A DNA stretch of 64,000 bases from a virus (IMGVR_UViG_3300025389_001172:32001-96000), one strand, 5' to 3'; counted from the first letter of the stretch, positions 2,906-62,675 are shown. Numbers and translations are program-made. Notes: generated by a model not told the origin, from the letters alone.

Positions 2906-3424
2906 TTATTTTAAGAATTCTCTTATATCTAATTCATACTTGATAGAATCAACCTTATGGACTCCTATCAAATATAATACATAACTGGCCACACTGCTTC
3001 CCCTACCTACACCCCATACGATATCGTTTTTACGCATGGTATCTACTAAGTATTTAATGTACTTGAGTAGGTCAATCATGTTATGTTGGGCAAAGAGTTT
3101 TAATTCCTCAGTGACGCGATCTTTTTGTTCCGGAGTCCGACATTCGTAGTATAACCAATCTACGATATCATGCAGTCTATATTCTTCGGGCATGTACCAT
3201 TGACTCTGATTCTGTTGATCAAATTCCTCAACAGTCATATCTGGTATTACCAATTCTTCTAGTGCTGGAAATCTATCACCTAACAGTGCTCGGGCCTGAT
3301 TGAATACGGAACGATCGGGTTCGGAGATGTATACACCTGTTAGAGATTTGATTTTACCAGAGTATAGGCTATCTACAGCTTCATCAGCAGTTATCTCAAC
3401 CTGTCCATATTCATTGATCTTCAT
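2906..3424 (-). CDS. DNA polymerase III alpha (DnaE)-like fragment
   Basis: GVGRGSSVASYVLYLIGVHKVDSIKYEL matches the DnaE GRGSxAGSLVAYxLGITxVDP motif; ends before PDIDIDF. Confidence 0.8.
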   Translation of the reverse strand: MKINEYGQVEITADEAVDSLYSGKIKSLTGVYISEPDRSVFNQARALLGDRFPALEELVIPDMTVEEFDQQNQSQWYMPEEYRLHDIVDWLYYECRTPEQKDRVTEELKLFAQHNMIDLLKYIKYLVDTMRKNDIVWGVGRGSSVASYVLYLIGVHKVDSIKYELDIREFLK

Positions 3425-3430
3425 CTAGTC

Positions 3431-3459
3431 ATTATAACACCATTGACGATCAGTGTCAA
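3431..3459 (-). promoter_or_regulatory. Sigma70-type promoter; probably leaderless mRNA for the DnaE fragment
   Basis: TTGACA-N17-TATAAT, with ATG 6 nt after the -10. Confidence 0.7.
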
Positions 3460-16095: not shown

Positions 16096-16305
16096 ACCTG
16101 TTCTCTCTTTATATGTATGATACAGCTTGGTGTTGCTACAGGTTGGACCCAGTTTCGTATGGCTCCTGCATTTATCCTACTGGCGTCTCCTTGTGTGGGC
16201 CCAACCAATGCACCTCGTTCTACATTGTTATAATAGATACTATTATGTCCAGGATACCAAAACTGATAAGGGTTAATCTTCATAATATATATTATAACAG
16301 ATTTT

Positions 16306-20757: not shown

Positions 20758-21410
20758 TATTTTTTCTCAAAGTAAACATTTAATTCATTACCCATATGAT
20801 CATTTGATTCGATCTCGGTTATGGTAAATCCTTTTGATTCTAGGTATTCGCAGACATCATCTACGAAGTTTGTGCTTTCTTTATATAACTTGATTTCTTG
20901 ATCTCTTGCACACTCGATTTTACCAGTACGGATTAGATTGATATAGTCTCCCATCCCTTTGAGTACCTTGAGATCACTGCCCTGTGTATCACAATGGAAA
21001 AAATCTATATGATCTAGATCTGGTATGTTGTCTTTTATCCATGTGTCTAATCTGGATACCTTGACTGTGATTGAGCCCACGGCTGACAATTCATCTACCC
21101 TAGGAACTCCTTCAGCACTTAACCAATATTTTTCGATGGCTTCTTTATCGAATTGATTTAACGAGTTACAGCCCATTCCTGGATTATTCTGTATGAAGAA
21201 TTCAGCCTCGCCGTCGAATTCCTCGATAGCAGATTCTACCACAGTATATCTATCGCTGAAACTTCTGCTGGCATTTTTTAGGTGATTGGCTATATGGGGA
21301 GTGGGTTCAAAGGCCCAAACTACCACATTAGAGTCTTTCGCGCAGTTAGGAAGGCTGTCATCTCCCCAATTGGCTCCTACGTCAAACAACACGTAATTTG
21401 TTTCAAACAT
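20757..21410 (-). CDS. FkbM-family SAM-dependent methyltransferase
   Basis: FDVGANWG, WAFEP, IDFFHCDTQGSDLKVLKG. Confidence 0.85.
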   Translation of the reverse strand: MFETNYVLFDVGANWGDDSLPNCAKDSNVVVWAFEPTPHIANHLKNASRSFSDRYTVVESAIEEFDGEAEFFIQNNPGMGCNSLNQFDKEAIEKYWLSAEGVPRVDELSAVGSITVKVSRLDTWIKDNIPDLDHIDFFHCDTQGSDLKVLKGMGDYINLIRTGKIECARDQEIKLYKESTNFVDDVCEYLESKGFTITEIESNDHMGNELNVYFEKK

Positions 21411-21768
21411 CGGTCTTTCCCCATCTTAAATAAAATTCAGTTAGTTTCTTCTCTTCTAGTTCAGCCAGGATATAATAGGTCCAACCCCAGAGCATGGGAT
21501 TCTGTATCCTTTCCCATCTCGGTTTGATCACAGCGTTATCCATGATCCACTTGCCTGCATCTGTTTGTTGCCAGTTCCAGATAGGTTCTGCCACCATAAG
21601 ATCTGGATCCTCGACATCGCCCATATTGATCTTGTGTACGATGACTTCTCTTATTTTACGCACAGTGGTATCATCACCAGGATCTAATTCGTACCTTACT
21701 CTGCCCATTTCAGTGCGAACAAGGTAGCCTGATGTGGATCTTCGAACTTGAATTTGAATGTACCCCAC
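21403..21768 (-). CDS. Hypothetical protein ending FYLRW
   Basis: C-terminus resembles the FxLRW family at 59-62.6 kb. Confidence 0.65.
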   Translation of the reverse strand: MGYIQIQVRRSTSGYLVRTEMGRVRYELDPGDDTTVRKIREVIVHKINMGDVEDPDLMVAEPIWNWQQTDAGKWIMDNAVIKPRWERIQNPMLWGWTYYILAELEEKKLTEFYLRWGKTDV

Positions 21769-21868
21769 TGATGGCCGATCATTTCAATCTCCCATCCATC
21801 CTCAGAAAACTCGTCTATGCACCACTGGGTAGCGTGTAATGCTCTAGTGTTGGTGACGATGAACTCGG

Positions 21869-22327
21869 TCACACCTTTTTCCTACGATTGAAGTTTCTAC
21901 GATTACCTGTTCTAGGTTTATTCTCTTTGACCATTAATGGTGCGTGTTCTACGGCCTTTTGGCTACGTTCCAGTGCGGCATGGATTTCATCTGGGCTAGG
22001 TTCTTCTACGTCCGGAGTTTCATATTCTGGATCATATTCATATCCAGCCTGCGCCATCTTTTTGTTGGCGGCATCCATTTCTGATACAGCGATCATTTCA
22101 CGTAGAGAACCTACAGGTCCCTTACTGTCTTGACTGATGGTATCCCAGCTACGTACTTCTAATAGAGCTTCGATACTACTAGGTACTGATACTACATACT
22201 GTACTTCTGTATATCCATCAGGAGTAAACTCATAAACGATTTTACCCTGGGTGAGTTTGTGGTTATTACGGCTAACACCGTAAATCCACACAGTATCACC
22301 TACTGCATAAGTCTTTTTGATTGTCAT
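21869..22327 (-). CDS. Hypothetical protein (SH3-like N-terminus)
   Basis: YAVGDTVWI start. Confidence 0.65.
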   Translation of the reverse strand: MTIKKTYAVGDTVWIYGVSRNNHKLTQGKIVYEFTPDGYTEVQYVVSVPSSIEALLEVRSWDTISQDSKGPVGSLREMIAVSEMDAANKKMAQAGYEYDPEYETPDVEEPSPDEIHAALERSQKAVEHAPLMVKENKPRTGNRRNFNRRKKV

Positions 22328-58642: not shown

Positions 58643-58731
58643 TAGTTTTCTCCTTATTAAGTGAGTATATCCGGGCACTATGCCCATTCGTAGCATCCAT
58701 TAGGTATACCACACCTTTATTTAGTATACAT

Positions 58732-59040
58732 TTAATCTATCTTTTTGTCAACCTGATCTTCGTCAATCACATGATCCGCCACTGGTCCAAACCGATCTAG
58801 ATAGTTTTCTTTGTAGCTCTTTTTAGATGCTTCAGCATCGTATTCTGCCTGCAATTCGCTATTTTCCTTGATTTTTAACAGCCAAGGATGGAGCAGTTTA
58901 TCAGTGATCCTGCGACTCAGTTCTTCTATGACCTGTTCAGCGGGCTCGCCCTGTGCGATACGTTGTAGTGCTATGCCGTACTCATAGATGCGGACACGTT
59001 CTACCCACTTTTCATATTCTTCGTTAGGATCGTATTTCAT
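58732..59040 (-). CDS. Stand-alone glutamyl-tRNA reductase dimerization-domain-like protein
   Basis: ALQRIAQGEPAEQVIEELSRRITDKLLHP resembles the HemA C-terminal L..G.....VLE.L...LTNKLLH.P pattern. Confidence 0.6.
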   Translation of the reverse strand: MKYDPNEEYEKWVERVRIYEYGIALQRIAQGEPAEQVIEELSRRITDKLLHPWLLKIKENSELQAEYDAEASKKSYKENYLDRFGPVADHVIDEDQVDKKID

Positions 59041-59264
59041 CCGCCCCACCTCAACATAAACATAAGCTGATCCTGTTCTGTCTTGAAAAAATATGTGCTA
59101 CGATAGTCTGGATCGAATACTGCCGCCGCGGGATCTTCTCCTAACTTGTACCAAGTTTCATTCCAAGGTCCTATATTTTCTACGCACCACTGCTGTACCT
59201 CGGGCCACCGATGTTTGGTATAGGCTGTATATATTAATCTTTTGTTAAGTTTAGGATAGGTCAT
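59037..59264 (-). CDS. FxLRW-family small protein
   Basis: QWCVENIG..W..FKTEQDQLMFMLRWG. Confidence 0.7.
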   Translation of the reverse strand: MTYPKLNKRLIYTAYTKHRWPEVQQWCVENIGPWNETWYKLGEDPAAAVFDPDYRSTYFFKTEQDQLMFMLRWGG

Positions 59265-59479
59265 TATGATCCCCACCTCAATAAGAACATCATATGATCT
59301 TGGGCACTGTGGAACTCAAAAACACCGTCTCCAATGTACCACCATCCTCGATGGCCAAATCTCTCTTCACACCATTCCAGGCAAGGCTTCCAACCCAGAT
59401 AACGATGGCCTGATATAGTGTTTAGTGATTCATATGGTGCAGGTATGCTGGCTATATGTCTTTTTGATATTTCGTTCAT
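59264..59479 (-). CDS. FxLRW-family small protein
   Basis: EWCEERFG..FEFHSAQDHMMFLLRWGS. Confidence 0.7.
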   Translation of the reverse strand: MNEISKRHIASIPAPYESLNTISGHRYLGWKPCLEWCEERFGHRGWWYIGDGVFEFHSAQDHMMFLLRWGS

Positions 59480-59664
59480 TATGAACCCCACCTTAATAAG
59501 AACATCATATGATCCTGAGCATTGTAGAAATATATACACCTGTTTCTTTCAAACCAAGTCTTGTGTCCAACAGGTCCAAACTGTCGGTAGCACCAGCTTA
59601 AAACCTCCAGATCCACCTGATTGTTTAACTCAACTATGTGGTATTCGTGACGATCTACCTTCAT
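59479..59664 (-). CDS. FxLRW-family small protein
   Basis: SWCYRQFG..FYNAQDHMMFLLRWGS. Confidence 0.7.
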   Translation of the reverse strand: MKVDRHEYHIVELNNQVDLEVLSWCYRQFGPVGHKTWFERNRCIYFYNAQDHMMFLLRWGS

Positions 59665-59864
59665 AGCCACCTCAACACAAACATTAAATAATCCTGCTCA
59701 CGATTAAACTCAAATACACCTTCACCCTGGTACCGCCAACCGGCCTTGACAGTTTGCTCGCACCAGCGTATGCAGGGTGACCATCCTGGATAGGTTAGGC
59801 CCATAATTTCCTGCTGACCTGGAGATGAGACGCTGGCTATATATCTATCTTGTTGACTGTTCAC
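59661..59864 (-). CDS. FxLRW-family small protein
   Basis: RWCEQ..FEFNREQDYLMFVLRWL. Confidence 0.7.
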   Translation of the reverse strand: MNSQQDRYIASVSSPGQQEIMGLTYPGWSPCIRWCEQTVKAGWRYQGEGVFEFNREQDYLMFVLRWL

Positions 59865-60175
59865 GACCACCTCAAAATAAACATAGTAGCATCTTTTTCT
59901 TTTTCAAAGATAAAGTCTCGGCCCCGACGCTCGTATGCACCTTTACAATTTTCTTCCAACCAGTACCTGATATCTATGGCGTGTTTGTTATCTACTAGAG
60001 TAGGCAACATAACACGAGTCCATCCTATACTTTTGAGCATACCCCAAAGTATTTCACGATCAATTTCTTCTTGCATTTCCTTGGCCTTAGCTTCTATCAT
60101 TTCTTTTTCTAAGATAGTCTGCTGGTCATTTACCCACGTTTTCATACTGTCTATACATTCTGGACTTAGATTCAT
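59861..60175 (-). CDS. FxLRW-family small protein
   Basis: EIDREIL..WLEENC..FEKEKDATMFILRWS. Confidence 0.7.
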   Translation of the reverse strand: MNLSPECIDSMKTWVNDQQTILEKEMIEAKAKEMQEEIDREILWGMLKSIGWTRVMLPTLVDNKHAIDIRYWLEENCKGAYERRGRDFIFEKEKDATMFILRWS

Positions 60176-60420
60176 GCCCACCTCAGGGTAAACAACAAAT
60201 AATCCCGTTCATCCTGCCACACCACCCGGTCAGGATTATACATAATTCTAACACCGGGATTTAGCTCTTCAAACTTACGATCAAATAACCGTTCTCGAGT
60301 ATGATTATTACAATCTGGATAATTTGAACTTATGTAATACACACAGTTTAACAAAGATTTGGGTATCTTTTTCATTCGTTCTTCGTGTGGAAAATCTACA
60401 GGAATTACAATTTCTATCAT
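60172..60420 (-). CDS. FxLRW-family small protein
   Basis: WQDERDYLLFTLRWA. Confidence 0.7.
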   Translation of the reverse strand: MIEIVIPVDFPHEERMKKIPKSLLNCVYYISSNYPDCNNHTRERLFDRKFEELNPGVRIMYNPDRVVWQDERDYLLFTLRWA

Positions 60421-60635
60421 GACCACCTCAATAAAAACAATGTGTATAATTTTTTGTCGAGTTGGTAGCATCTCTGGCCGTCCCGGGTCTCCCCTACCGT
60501 CCAGGGACCTTGTTGTCTTATCCAGATTTCAATTTCTTCTCGATAGACTTCTACCACAACAATATGATGCGTTTTGCCTAAAACTTGAAATCCGGGCATG
60601 ACCTTACCAAAACAATCAAGGTATATATATGTCAT
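60417..60635 (-). CDS. FxLRW-family small protein
   Basis: LYTLFLLRWS. Confidence 0.7.
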   Translation of the reverse strand: MTYIYLDCFGKVMPGFQVLGKTHHIVVVEVYREEIEIWIRQQGPWTVGETRDGQRCYQLDKKLYTLFLLRWS

Positions 60636-60822
60636 AGCCACCTCAGTGCAAATAGTGCGGCTTTTTTTGGACAGTCGAATTCCCACCGTCGGCCCATACC
60701 GCGTTCTCGCCTAGATATCGGCCCAGTCTGAATTTGAGACCCAGAGATTCTATTATTTCCCGGTCAATTTGGTCTTGCATTGCCTTTGCTATTGATGTCA
60801 TTATTGCATCTTCTGTAATCAT
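60632..60822 (-). pseudogene. Frameshifted FxLRW-family gene
   Basis: N-terminus QIDREII in one frame; RWEFDCPKKAALFALRWL* in the -1 frame. Confidence 0.65.
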
Positions 60823-61049
60823 AGCCACCTCAACAAGAACATGGCCAGATCTTGTTCTTTCTCGAAACGAAAGATATGATAGGCCATACGAGCGTGATAA
60901 CCCAGGGTGTCAATACACCACTGATTGATCTCATCATAGATCGATTCTGTGAGGGGAACGGCATAATCTACACCAGATAGTTTATACGAGGGTTGATCCC
61001 ACACCTCGGCTACCCATTTACGTCCCTGTCGTCTGTAGTCTATGTCCAT
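60819..61049 (-). CDS. FxLRW-family small protein
   Basis: QWCIDTLG..FRFEKEQDLAMFLLRWL. Confidence 0.7.
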   Translation of the reverse strand: MDIDYRRQGRKWVAEVWDQPSYKLSGVDYAVPLTESIYDEINQWCIDTLGYHARMAYHIFRFEKEQDLAMFLLRWL

Positions 61050-61294
61050 TCTGCGTATTTCATCTTAAACATCAGTATATCCTTGTCATCCCAGAAGTAA
61101 AATCCATAACAGACGTCATACATGGGACTGACGTCGCTGGTGTTGACTTCTTCCATCCATAGGAAACTATGGCAGTTCTCTATGGCCCAGTATTTGATAT
61201 CTTTGATCTTTGGCGGATCTCCTAACACTATCAGCGTACACTGATCTAGGAGTTCCTGTGGAGGTTCATAGGGAAATAAGTAGTTACTGATCAT
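61040..61294 (-). CDS. Divergent FxLRW-family small protein
   Basis: WAIENC..FYFWDDKDILMFKMKY. Confidence 0.6.
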   Translation of the reverse strand: MISNYLFPYEPPQELLDQCTLIVLGDPPKIKDIKYWAIENCHSFLWMEEVNTSDVSPMYDVCYGFYFWDDKDILMFKMKYAEWT

Positions 61295-61551
61295 CTCATC
61301 AGGCTCCCTACAAACTCCACGGTGATCTGAGACTCAGGTATGACATCCCCTCCATGTTCCAATATAAACATAGTAGCATCTTTTTCACTGACAAAATGCC
61401 AGTCCATCCAATCTGTATCTATATTGGTCATGTATCTATCACCGGGCAGTCCGAACTGTTCAAAGGTGCGTGCCAAGATCTCATTCCACATGACATGCTC
61501 GTTGGCAGGATCATTGATCTCATTCCAATAGAGTCGCACAGTTGTGGTCAT
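61291..61551 (-). CDS. Divergent FxLRW-family small protein
   Basis: EQFGLPG..FVSEKDATMFIL. Confidence 0.6.
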   Translation of the reverse strand: MTTTVRLYWNEINDPANEHVMWNEILARTFEQFGLPGDRYMTNIDTDWMDWHFVSEKDATMFILEHGGDVIPESQITVEFVGSLMR

Positions 61552-62372
61552 ACAGTAAACGAAAATCCAGGATCAAAATGGTCTGTGGGCTCATAGCCAA
61601 CATAGCCACGAGGATTACTGACAACACGAGTCTCACCGATATAATAACTTACCGGATCGTGCATATGGCCATGTACCCAAGTATGGATGTTGGGATTGTC
61701 CAGAATGAACTGATCCATGTTGCTGGAGTATCCACCATTCATAGTGGTATCATACCGATATTTCTCGTTGACACTCTGGAAGCTGGGAGAGTGATGAGTA
61801 ATCACAACAAAGGGCTTGTCACGGTTCAACTCCAATATGGTCTTGAAATACTGTTTGGTCTTGAAGTGTATCTCAGCAGTACGTTCCGGCGTCAGCTTGT
61901 GCCAGACGCTTCTATCAGGATAGAATTCTGTGATTGCCCTGTAGTCATTCATCCCCATCTTGAGATGCATGGCCGTGATTGGGTCGCCTCCATTGAGGTC
62001 GGTCCATAGGGTAGAGCCCATAAACATGACTCCACGATATTCTTCTACCTGATCCTCTAGCAGGGTCACGTTGGCTGGCAAGATCTTTAGGAGTTCATCG
62101 TAGGTCTTGTAGAGTTTGCCACCATAGTGCTCGTGATTGCCCATGACCATGAATACCTTGTCATATTTGGCGCATTCTACACGGAAGAATTCACTACAGG
62201 GAAATTCTCGATTGGGTTCTCCGGTTGGGTATAGAGTTTTGGTACTGTGGAATTCTGTGGTGAGCCTGCGAGCTTCGCAGACGTCACCGGCGAGAATTAA
62301 AACCTCCCCACCTGGGAGTTCGCAGTATCCACCAACATCTAGATGTAAATCACTTACCAAACTCACCTTCAT
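61548..62372 (-). CDS. Calcineurin-like metallophosphoesterase
   Basis: SDLHL, LAGD, GNHE, THHSP, HGHMH, NPRGY. Confidence 0.9.
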   Translation of the reverse strand: MKVSLVSDLHLDVGGYCELPGGEVLILAGDVCEARRLTTEFHSTKTLYPTGEPNREFPCSEFFRVECAKYDKVFMVMGNHEHYGGKLYKTYDELLKILPANVTLLEDQVEEYRGVMFMGSTLWTDLNGGDPITAMHLKMGMNDYRAITEFYPDRSVWHKLTPERTAEIHFKTKQYFKTILELNRDKPFVVITHHSPSFQSVNEKYRYDTTMNGGYSSNMDQFILDNPNIHTWVHGHMHDPVSYYIGETRVVSNPRGYVGYEPTDHFDPGFSFTV

Positions 62373-62373
62373 A

Positions 62374-62640
62374 TCAACTCCACCTTAATCCAAAATGTGC
62401 GGCTTCTTTTTCAGAGCCAAAATAGATACGGATCCTACCGTTGTCGGCACTCATCCACGCCCACAGTGTATTCTTTTTACCAGTTTTATAGTAGTAGTCC
62501 AGCTCACAGCTAGGTCCCCAGGTTTCCCAGCACCACTGTCTGTGTTCTACAAATGTGTCGGCATCTTTATAGATATACTGAACCATATGGGTAAACGTAT
62601 CTCCACCTGAGTATTGACGTGTTAGTTTTTTGATCTTCAT
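62374..62640 (-). CDS. FxLRW-family small protein
   Basis: QWCWETWGP..YFGSEKEAAHFGLRWS. Confidence 0.7.
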   Translation of the reverse strand: MKIKKLTRQYSGGDTFTHMVQYIYKDADTFVEHRQWCWETWGPSCELDYYYKTGKKNTLWAWMSADNGRIRIYFGSEKEAAHFGLRWS

Positions 62641-62646
62641 ATTATT

Positions 62647-62675
62647 ATTATACAATCTTTTTGGTAAAAAGTCAA
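62647..62675 (-). promoter_or_regulatory. Sigma70-type early promoter with TTTTACCA spacer; probably leaderless
   Basis: TTGACT-TTTTACCAAAAAGATTG-TATAAT, with ATG 6 nt downstream. Confidence 0.75.

Follow-up and report, generated by a model that had tools for sequence, protein, structure and literature searches.

Why should a row of divergent small viral genes end, one after another, in the same short run of codons? The question is raised by a 64,000-nucleotide (nt) stretch of DNA, hereafter the window, which comprises bases 32001–96000 of the 141-kb IMG/VR virus record IMGVR_UViG_3300025389_001172. On its minus strand, 59037–62640 holds twelve paralogous genes of 61–104 amino acids (aa) together with one metallophosphatase gene, and the chain runs in the order A, metallophosphoesterase gene, B, C, D, E, F, G, H, I, J, K, L, M. 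CheckV puts the completeness of the record at 39%, which implies a large phage, and the record contains tRNAs, tail-fibre genes and dnaK. A preliminary description had seen in this region about 12 tandem mini-genes with an FxLRW ending, the 3' motif of which was proposed to act at once as protein motif, Shine-Dalgarno sequence and recombination handle. All twelve paralogs were recovered by a sequence profile, and that overall interpretation is partly supported. The explanation that we consider probable is an early-type operon of chained cassettes, exchanged at their junctions, in which the shared gene end has a triple use.

Ten of the twelve copies (A, D, E, F, G, H, I, J, K and L) end in Leu-Arg-Trp (LRW), and in every one the Arg-Trp pair is written AGG TGG (10/10), as had first been described, 5–11 nt ahead of the next start codon. 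In B (FILEHGG...) and C (FKMKYAEWT) LRW is absent and the endings have drifted. Seven junctions are ATGA or GTGA overlaps, two are TAATG, and A is separated from the phosphatase gene by a 1-nt gap. AGG is not equally common at other Arg sites: the remainder of the genome has 155 AGG among 1953 Arg codons (7.9%), and within the array the count is 3 of 45 at non-LRW Arg codons compared with 9 of 9 at LRW (10 of 10 with the broken copy E). The Leu codon before the Arg ends in G in eight of the ten copies. These bases give GAGGTG(G) 3–6 nt before the ATG at the array junctions, with GAGG at 5 nt, which is the same register as GGAG, commonest 6 nt from the ATG genome-wide. A Shine-Dalgarno-like 4-mer precedes 51% of the other long open reading frames (ORFs) in the genome, compared with 12.5% of controls. 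The predicted duplex with the anti-Shine-Dalgarno sequence, assumed canonical, has an energy of −14.1 kcal/mol for AGG, −10.2 for CGG, −7.4 for AGA and −3.5 for CGT, CGC or CGA, and TTG or CTG before the Arg codon outdoes TTA or CTA.

Because paralogs share ancestry, the link between codon and coupling was also tested in relatives, where 64 IMG/VR loci with family members yielded 97 non-redundant LRW genes. With the next start 8 nt from the Arg codon, the codon was AGG in 18 genes, CGG in 2 and AGA in none; at 5 nt, it was AGG in 18, AGA in 14 and CGA in 1; and at 15 nt or more AGG occurred in 0 of 13. Ten genes of the LRWG(T/S/A)x type, whose next start lies 11 nt from the Arg codon, always used CGN, and at these ends the Shine-Dalgarno sequence is probably TGGGGA, supplied by the Trp-Gly codons. 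When each 60%-identity cluster was counted once, AGG was the majority codon in 20 of 26 clusters with the next start 3–9 nt off and in 1 of 9 uncoupled clusters (Fisher P = 9e-4; 1.5e-3 without this window), against a background of 5.5% in the same relatives' genes. The order of the duplex energies broadly matches codon use, AGG being dominant and CGT, CGC and CGA nearly absent, yet CGG, second in energy, is rarer than AGA.

Some observations weigh against a strict ribosome-binding role for these codons. AGA stands at about 40% of the relatives' 5-nt junctions, and the ortholog of A in the related contig L010 (94% identical) uses AGA, as AGA TGG AGT; judging by its sequence, the GGAG of the Trp-Ser codons can there replace the AGG Shine-Dalgarno. 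The stop/start overlap by itself may also be enough for coupling. Given the two AGA observations, the AGG Shine-Dalgarno is best seen as helpful, not obligatory. One candidate cause of AGA at 5-nt junctions, the in-frame ATG that arises in AGA TGG or AAA TGG, was rejected since AGA is absent at 8-nt junctions, where the same would hold; the pattern is explained more simply by AGA being one step from AGG and having an intermediate duplex energy. With the codon-coupling link across relatives, the spacing and the duplex energies taken together, the proposal that the LRW bases are read both as a protein motif and as a Shine-Dalgarno sequence appears well supported, though not absolute.

Could AGG TGG merely have been inherited from the ancestor of the tandem duplicates, with no selection for a ribosome-binding site? 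All copies are paralogs, hence their codons are not independent observations, and the main alternative, AGA, is a single synonymous step from AGG. However, the paralogs are only 15–52% identical in protein, so that other synonymous sites are saturated, and AGG tracks both the presence and the distance of a coupled start across 40 clusters (p ~1e-3). It is also absent from uncoupled copies, two of which are in the same genome, and the G-ending preference extends to the Leu codon, where it strengthens the duplex. Inheritance without selection is thus hardly credible. A different possibility is that the Arg-Trp ending is conserved mainly as nucleotides, for ribosome binding, and not because the protein needs it, since the motif lies at the protein's very end, the exact place needed for the next gene's Shine-Dalgarno. 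We think this quite unlikely. L-[RK]-W survives at ends that no coupled gene follows, where it is written with AAA, AGA or CGN codons, both in relatives and in a separate pair of members in the window (21403..21872); the roughly 7,200 cluster representatives that match the family profile do so mostly up to the C-terminal end; in structure models the C-terminal helix predicted for the core finishes with the motif; and distant relatives in Agrobacterium jumbo phage Atu_ph07 keep this helix although their endings are LRY or ITF. Because the motif is retained with non-Shine-Dalgarno codons at uncoupled ends, L-[RK]-W is a protein-level requirement and is primary, the AGG spelling having been added where useful.

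The gene ends are also where related arrays differ from one another. In an all-against-all comparison of the loci, 22 of 39 in-array homology breakpoints lay within 10 nt of a family stop codon (4.4% expected), and these 22 stem from at least five separate contig groups; outside the arrays, 5 of 33 breakpoints were equally near any ORF stop. Contigs L040 and L045 are distinguished by a single 303-nt cassette, and the crossover falls within a shared 3' end of about 40 nt: where L040 has two successive junctions L045 has one, which begins with the left flank of the first, continues through the shared stretch and finishes with the right flank of the second. To judge from the two sequences, this is unequal crossing-over in textbook form, and the same repeat is a point at which several sister contigs break. 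L047 and L048 have one 272-nt cassette in common, both borders of which are at junctions. L010 (IMGVR_UViG_3300013093_004065; 94–96% nucleotide identity) shares the promoter, A, the phosphatase gene and B with the window; an extra family cassette, which encodes 83 aa ending ..MFLLKYGDYLQDDQ, is placed between B and C, and the contig goes on through D to the beginning of E. L074 shares just 540 nt with the window (60711–60172, the 3' end of E, F and G) at 98.5% identity, and this stretch is flanked on both sides by other, unrelated family cassettes, its right border being exactly the G/H overlap. Within the window, the neighbours J (61 aa; 59479..59664, minus strand) and K (71 aa; 59264..59479, minus strand) both end in AQDHMMFLLRWGS and are alike at 41 of their last 45 nt, as the preliminary description had noted of two adjacent ends of about 40 nt, and are barely alignable upstream. 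The comparisons support the junction as the place where cassettes are gained, lost and exchanged, and the breakpoints near stops and the L040/L045 crossover speak for the suggested recombination handle.

Breakpoints at gene ends would also be left by classical phage mosaicism, in which illegitimate recombination is random, selection retains whole genes and the shared junction plays no mechanistic part. Several results count in that direction and against an active role of the junction. The borders of the extra L010 cassette lie at ATGA overlaps, where the common sequence is AGATGA, only 6 nt of microhomology. Member E shows that crossovers within genes occur. Synonymous sites of the tail are hardly homogenised, with codon identity at identical residues of 59.5% within arrays compared with 55.1% between them, and there is no strong concerted evolution of the junction. 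Breakpoint clustering at gene ends could, moreover, come partly from selection on random recombinants. Mosaicism of this kind does not readily account for a crossover within a near-identical repeat of about 40 nt at which several sister contigs also break (L040/L045), for the likeness of J and K at their 3' ends with little upstream, or for the difference between 22/39 breakpoints near ORF ends inside arrays and 5/33 outside. We regard it as unlikely, if a serious contender, and prefer exchange at the shared junction.

Member E itself (60632..60822, minus strand; profile match with E 2e-4, and repeat comparison) had been taken for a frameshifted gene. That it is broken was borne out, and the frameshift was not. 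Its N-terminal frame, 60822–60643 with TGA at 60643, resembles the start of H (AKAMQDQIDREII versus AKEMQEEIDREIL), and its last 80 nt, in another frame (..RRWEFDCPKKAALFALRWL, stop at 60632), are identical to the end of a gene of 84 aa that is intact in L074. The stop codon of either frame falls at the junction or no more than about 10 nt from it, and F retains an undamaged Shine-Dalgarno and ATG. With an H-like 5' part and a 3' part from a different intact gene, E has the sequence of a recombination scar, a chimera left by deletion between two cassettes, and not of a shifted gene. An intact gene read by programmed frameshifting, or an assembly or sequencing error, might be suspected from seven consecutive A residues, 30 nt before the junction, and from the sister contig L010, which ends within 2 nt of the chimera point (at the equivalent of window 60713, with the chimera point at 60711). 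But the frame change lies upstream of the A run, there is no slippery heptamer, and the two halves belong to two genes, an H homolog and the intact L074 gene. The exact 59-aa chimeric product is found on five contigs from several sources, which disfavours a one-off assembly error. Frameshifting or error is accordingly very unlikely. The L010 contig end could reflect a polymorphic junction that broke the assembly.

The array occupies a defined slot. Many relatives have orthologs of the phosphatase gene 5' of their arrays and M, dnaK and heme-oxygenase/bilin-reductase genes 3' of them, and between these anchors the syntenic slot holds 4–6 members in relatives and 11 here (plus A), so the array is not static. 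Ten of the 11 members are closer to a member in another phage (54–100% identity) than to any in their own genome, where the best paralog pairs reach 46–52% identity (alignments of at least 40 aa). An array with such relatives elsewhere and at most 52% identity within the genome would have been built from old, shared cassette lineages. Recent tandem amplification in situ was rejected, as there are no near-identical copies and in-genome identity does not exceed 52%; shuffling from a common cassette pool fits better. Thus, of the accordion-like expansion and shuffling envisaged at the outset, the shuffling stands and the recent expansion does not.

These results can be joined in one scheme. One early-type operon would start at the promoter at 62675 and run through A, the phosphatase gene, B to L, and M. 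Its twelve cassettes, arranged head to tail, encode small soluble proteins of a single unnamed and very large family, and each protein ends in a short amphipathic helix, ..D-x-x-M-F-x-L-[R/K]-W, needed at the protein level. Where the next gene starts within about 10 nt, Leu-Arg is spelled (T/C)TG AGG, giving in the mRNA GAGGUG(G), which is predicted to pair perfectly with the 16S rRNA 3' end and lies at the genome's usual spacing; sequence statistics suggest that ribosomes ending one cassette, or binding afresh, would then start the next. Because every cassette has the same 15–45 nt end, made up of helix codons, Shine-Dalgarno and stop/start overlap, crossovers between junctions, whether homologous or microhomology-mediated, would add, remove or swap whole cassettes, as the comparison of relatives indicates. 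A junction-to-junction product would automatically be in frame and translatable, and crossovers away from the junctions would leave scars such as member E. The outcome would be a variable slot between conserved genes (phosphatase on one side; M, dnaK and heme oxygenase on the other), filled from a pool that phages share. The proteins are most likely binders of different host or phage targets early in infection, although this is a guess.

The members A to L align as one family, W..I..W(C/L).E..G...W...F.F....D..MF.LRW. A profile built from the copies recovers all twelve from the whole record (E 1e-14 to 1e-25; 2e-4 for the broken E), and one more weakly. In a search of 1.84 billion proteins, about 7,200 clusters at 50% identity matched the core profile; nearly all of the representatives, which are listed without genomic context, are 53–140 aa long, and the match extends to their last residues. 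The ratio of nonsynonymous to synonymous polymorphism (pN/pS), from orthologs in L010 and L074, is 0.15 for the members, near the 0.09 of the phosphatase gene, which argues that they are real, constrained genes. The proteins are soluble, with 10–20% aromatic residues and isoelectric points from 4.2 to 8.9. AlphaFold models predict a core of helix, beta-hairpin and helix, with the LRW motif closing the last helix; mean predicted local distance difference test scores (pLDDT) are 79 (H) and 71.5 (core), and a further strand and a long N-terminal helix are seen in the H model. That the aromatic core stays constant while N-termini, loops and charge vary, and that the operon is probably an early one, would fit a set of binders, as far as one may guess.

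Comparison with known proteins lent the suggested function no direct support: the members fell in no known family, and neither a significant structural match nor a fusion partner turned up. Pfam and PHROGs scans of all members yielded nothing above cut-off, and neither blastn of the array nor tblastn of H found a match among GenBank phages. Related-locus searches with members K and F returned no viral loci, and a protein atlas search returned unnamed viral clusters only. The best hit of a profile search of the PDB had an E of 0.9. Structure searches with Foldseek against the PDB (best E 0.37) and with VIA more widely (best Z 4.5) detected only a generic two-layer alpha/beta resemblance; the T4 Arn protein was rejected as a fold relative (Z 3.3, not meaningful). 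A search for longer or fused forms found none above 116 aa. Among the cluster representatives, P0155 (141 aa) has two family units in one ORF (..FFILKWLASDDD.. then ..LFILKWL) and is probably a read-through fusion of adjacent cassettes. Three long profile matches were set aside because they matched repeatedly to a W-rich stretch only. P0153, P0162, P0217 and P0264 have an N-terminal G-x-(V/L)-R-(F/Y)-N-x-x-T-x-x-x-E-x-(F/Y/W)-x-G-x-x-W ahead of the core, which may be a second small module.

Fold matches in BFVD were to uncharacterised proteins of uncultured phages, with weak ones in Atu_ph07 (MF403008). By profile search this phage, the only cultured one found with the family, has at least five distant members (E 7e-7 to 8e-4), all annotated as hypothetical and including AUZ95037, AUZ95034, AUZ95014 and AUZ95016. 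They belong to the same domain family as the array and have small genes for neighbours as well, with a phosphatase and an adenine methylase close by. Unlike the array, they have LRY or ITF endings with tails, are not chained and lack an AGG TGG junction. Their positions (MF403008 196–200 kb and 182–185 kb), near a Ser/Thr phosphatase and an adenine methyltransferase, echo the phosphatase and methylase-half genes beside the array.

A sigma-70-type promoter with an 11/12 match (TTGACT, 17 nt, TATAAT) lies 5' of gene A at 62647..62675 on the minus strand, and the next, also 11/12 and on the minus strand, is at 58723..58751, 5' of dnaK; by its sequence, the latter marks the end of the array's transcription unit. 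Between 62647 and 58751 promoter matches reach at most 9/12, a level equalled by shuffled sequence, and no promoter-plus-stem-loop unit was found at the cassette junctions, the sole terminator-like match in that interval being a 5-bp hairpin within the phosphatase gene. Nor was a TATAAATA late box found within the array. The array looks like a single early-type operon, with early expression suggested by the promoter consensus match. The whole record contains 34 promoters at 11/12 or better, compared with 4.4 in shuffles, and 32 of the 34 are on the minus strand, which is the main coding strand. The phage thus appears to make wide use of host-type promoters, and their number is unusually heavy for a large phage. 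The ATG of A is 6 nt past the −10 box, which suggests that this first gene may be leaderless on the mRNA. Three near-consensus promoters on the minus strand (62640–62652, 3424–3436 and about 16283–16296) have an ATG 6–7 nt past the −10 box followed by AAGAT (ATGAAGAT..), a pattern that hints at early mRNAs without a leader. A search for Gp23 (PF07068) gave no match in the 39%-complete record, but the control genomes were negative too, so this is uninformative.

All genes of the chain are on the minus strand. Member A (88 aa; 62374..62640) ends in ..HFGLRWS and leads through AGG TGG AGT TGA T ATG into the calcineurin-like metallophosphoesterase gene (274 aa; 61548..62372; Pfam PF00149, E 6e-9), a conserved anchor of the slot and not a family member. 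Member B (86 aa; 61291..61551) has ATGA overlaps on both sides and ends in FILEHGG plus a 17-aa tail; in relatives as well, a B-type cassette comes first after the phosphatase gene. Member C (84 aa; 61040..61294), identified by profile match, ends in ..MFKMKYAEWT. Member D (76 aa; 60819..61049) ends in ..MFLLRWL, with the junction TTGAGGTGGCTATGA. Beyond E come F (72 aa; 60417..60635; ..LFLLRWS), whose protein is 100% identical in L074, and G (82 aa; 60172..60420; ..LFTLRWA), at whose stop/start overlap the homology to L074 stops exactly. Member H (104 aa; 59861..60175), with its long N-terminal helix, represents the most widespread subfamily (..GRDFIFE..KDATMFILRWS), and the GTG start of I (67 aa; 59661..59864; ..MFVLRWL) overlaps the stop of H as GTGA. 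Between 4 and 10 further contigs encode proteins identical to E, F, H and K. Member L (75 aa; 59037..59264; ..MFMLRWGG) is joined through GAGGTGGGGCGGATGA to gene M (102 aa; 58732..59040), the last coupled gene of the chain. M is not a family member; it matches Pfam PF00745 (E 8e-8), and only this dimerisation domain of glutamyl-tRNA reductase (GlutR, HemA). In relatives it is kept 3' of the arrays, beside the dnaK and heme-oxygenase/bilin-reductase genes.

The separate pair of divergent members on the minus strand at 21403..21872 was found with a refined profile. The first gene (58 aa) ends in ..LFALKWAE, with Lys as AAA, and the second in ..EFYLRWGKTDV, with Arg as AGA. At 21696–21712 (minus strand) the only plausible ATG of the second gene is formed within the Lys-Trp codons of the first (AAA TGG). 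In this pair the motif thus appears to provide the start codon rather than the Shine-Dalgarno.

If the proposed scheme is right, a single short sequence is constrained at three levels, as protein helix, ribosome-binding site and crossover site, and small genes are made modular, since any crossover from junction to junction yields an in-frame, translatable array. The scheme would account for chimeric or fused ORFs in the annotation of such arrays, and it offers a rule for calling true starts. It also draws attention to an unnamed phage protein family of very large size, with about 7,200 clusters at 50% identity. Its members here occupy a variable operon of early type, a setting that makes the family a reasonable place to seek new host-takeover or counter-defence functions. 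A much broader version is conceivable, and we put it forward tentatively, leaning somewhat against it: the coding-embedded junction would be a general plug-and-play device by which co-infecting phages exchange the mini-proteins of more than 7,000 aquatic-phage clusters as cassettes ready for translation, a recombinase-free analogue of integron cassettes or of promoter-early stem-loops (PeSLs), and the family would be a diversified arsenal of early binders against host functions or defences.

How does the array compare with systems already known? Ordinary ATGA or TAATG coupling likewise has a stop/start overlap with a Shine-Dalgarno-like purine run 5–8 nt ahead, within the preceding ORF, whose codon choice is shaped by it. 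Unlike in ordinary coupling, the Shine-Dalgarno of the array lies on a family-wide amino-acid motif and does so at ten successive junctions, which would make the junction portable between paralogs. Virus multigene families and 'genomic accordions', such as the amplification of K3L in poxviruses, form tandem arrays of paralogs whose copy number differs among close relatives. Unlike the K3L accordion, the array has no near-identical recent copies, in-genome identity being at most 52%, and the closer relatives of its members are in another phage.

The closest described concept is modular shuffling mediated by PeSLs. PeSL cassettes in the hyperplastic regions of T4-type phages carry a short conserved expression signal between small non-essential ORFs, and the PeSLs are crossover points at which related phages gain, lose or substitute entire ORFs (Arbiol et al. 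2010, PMC2839356; Comeau et al. 2014, PMC4122927). The likeness lies in a repeated short expression signal that serves as a crossover point in a variable slot between conserved genes. The two systems also differ: the PeSL is a non-coding promoter and terminator, whereas the repeated unit of the array is coding and would couple translation, not transcription; no comparably strong promoter or stem-loop terminator unit lies between the cassettes of the array; and all of its cassettes belong to one protein family. The array would thus carry modular shuffling of the PeSL type beyond transcription signals, to a signal that lies within coding sequence.

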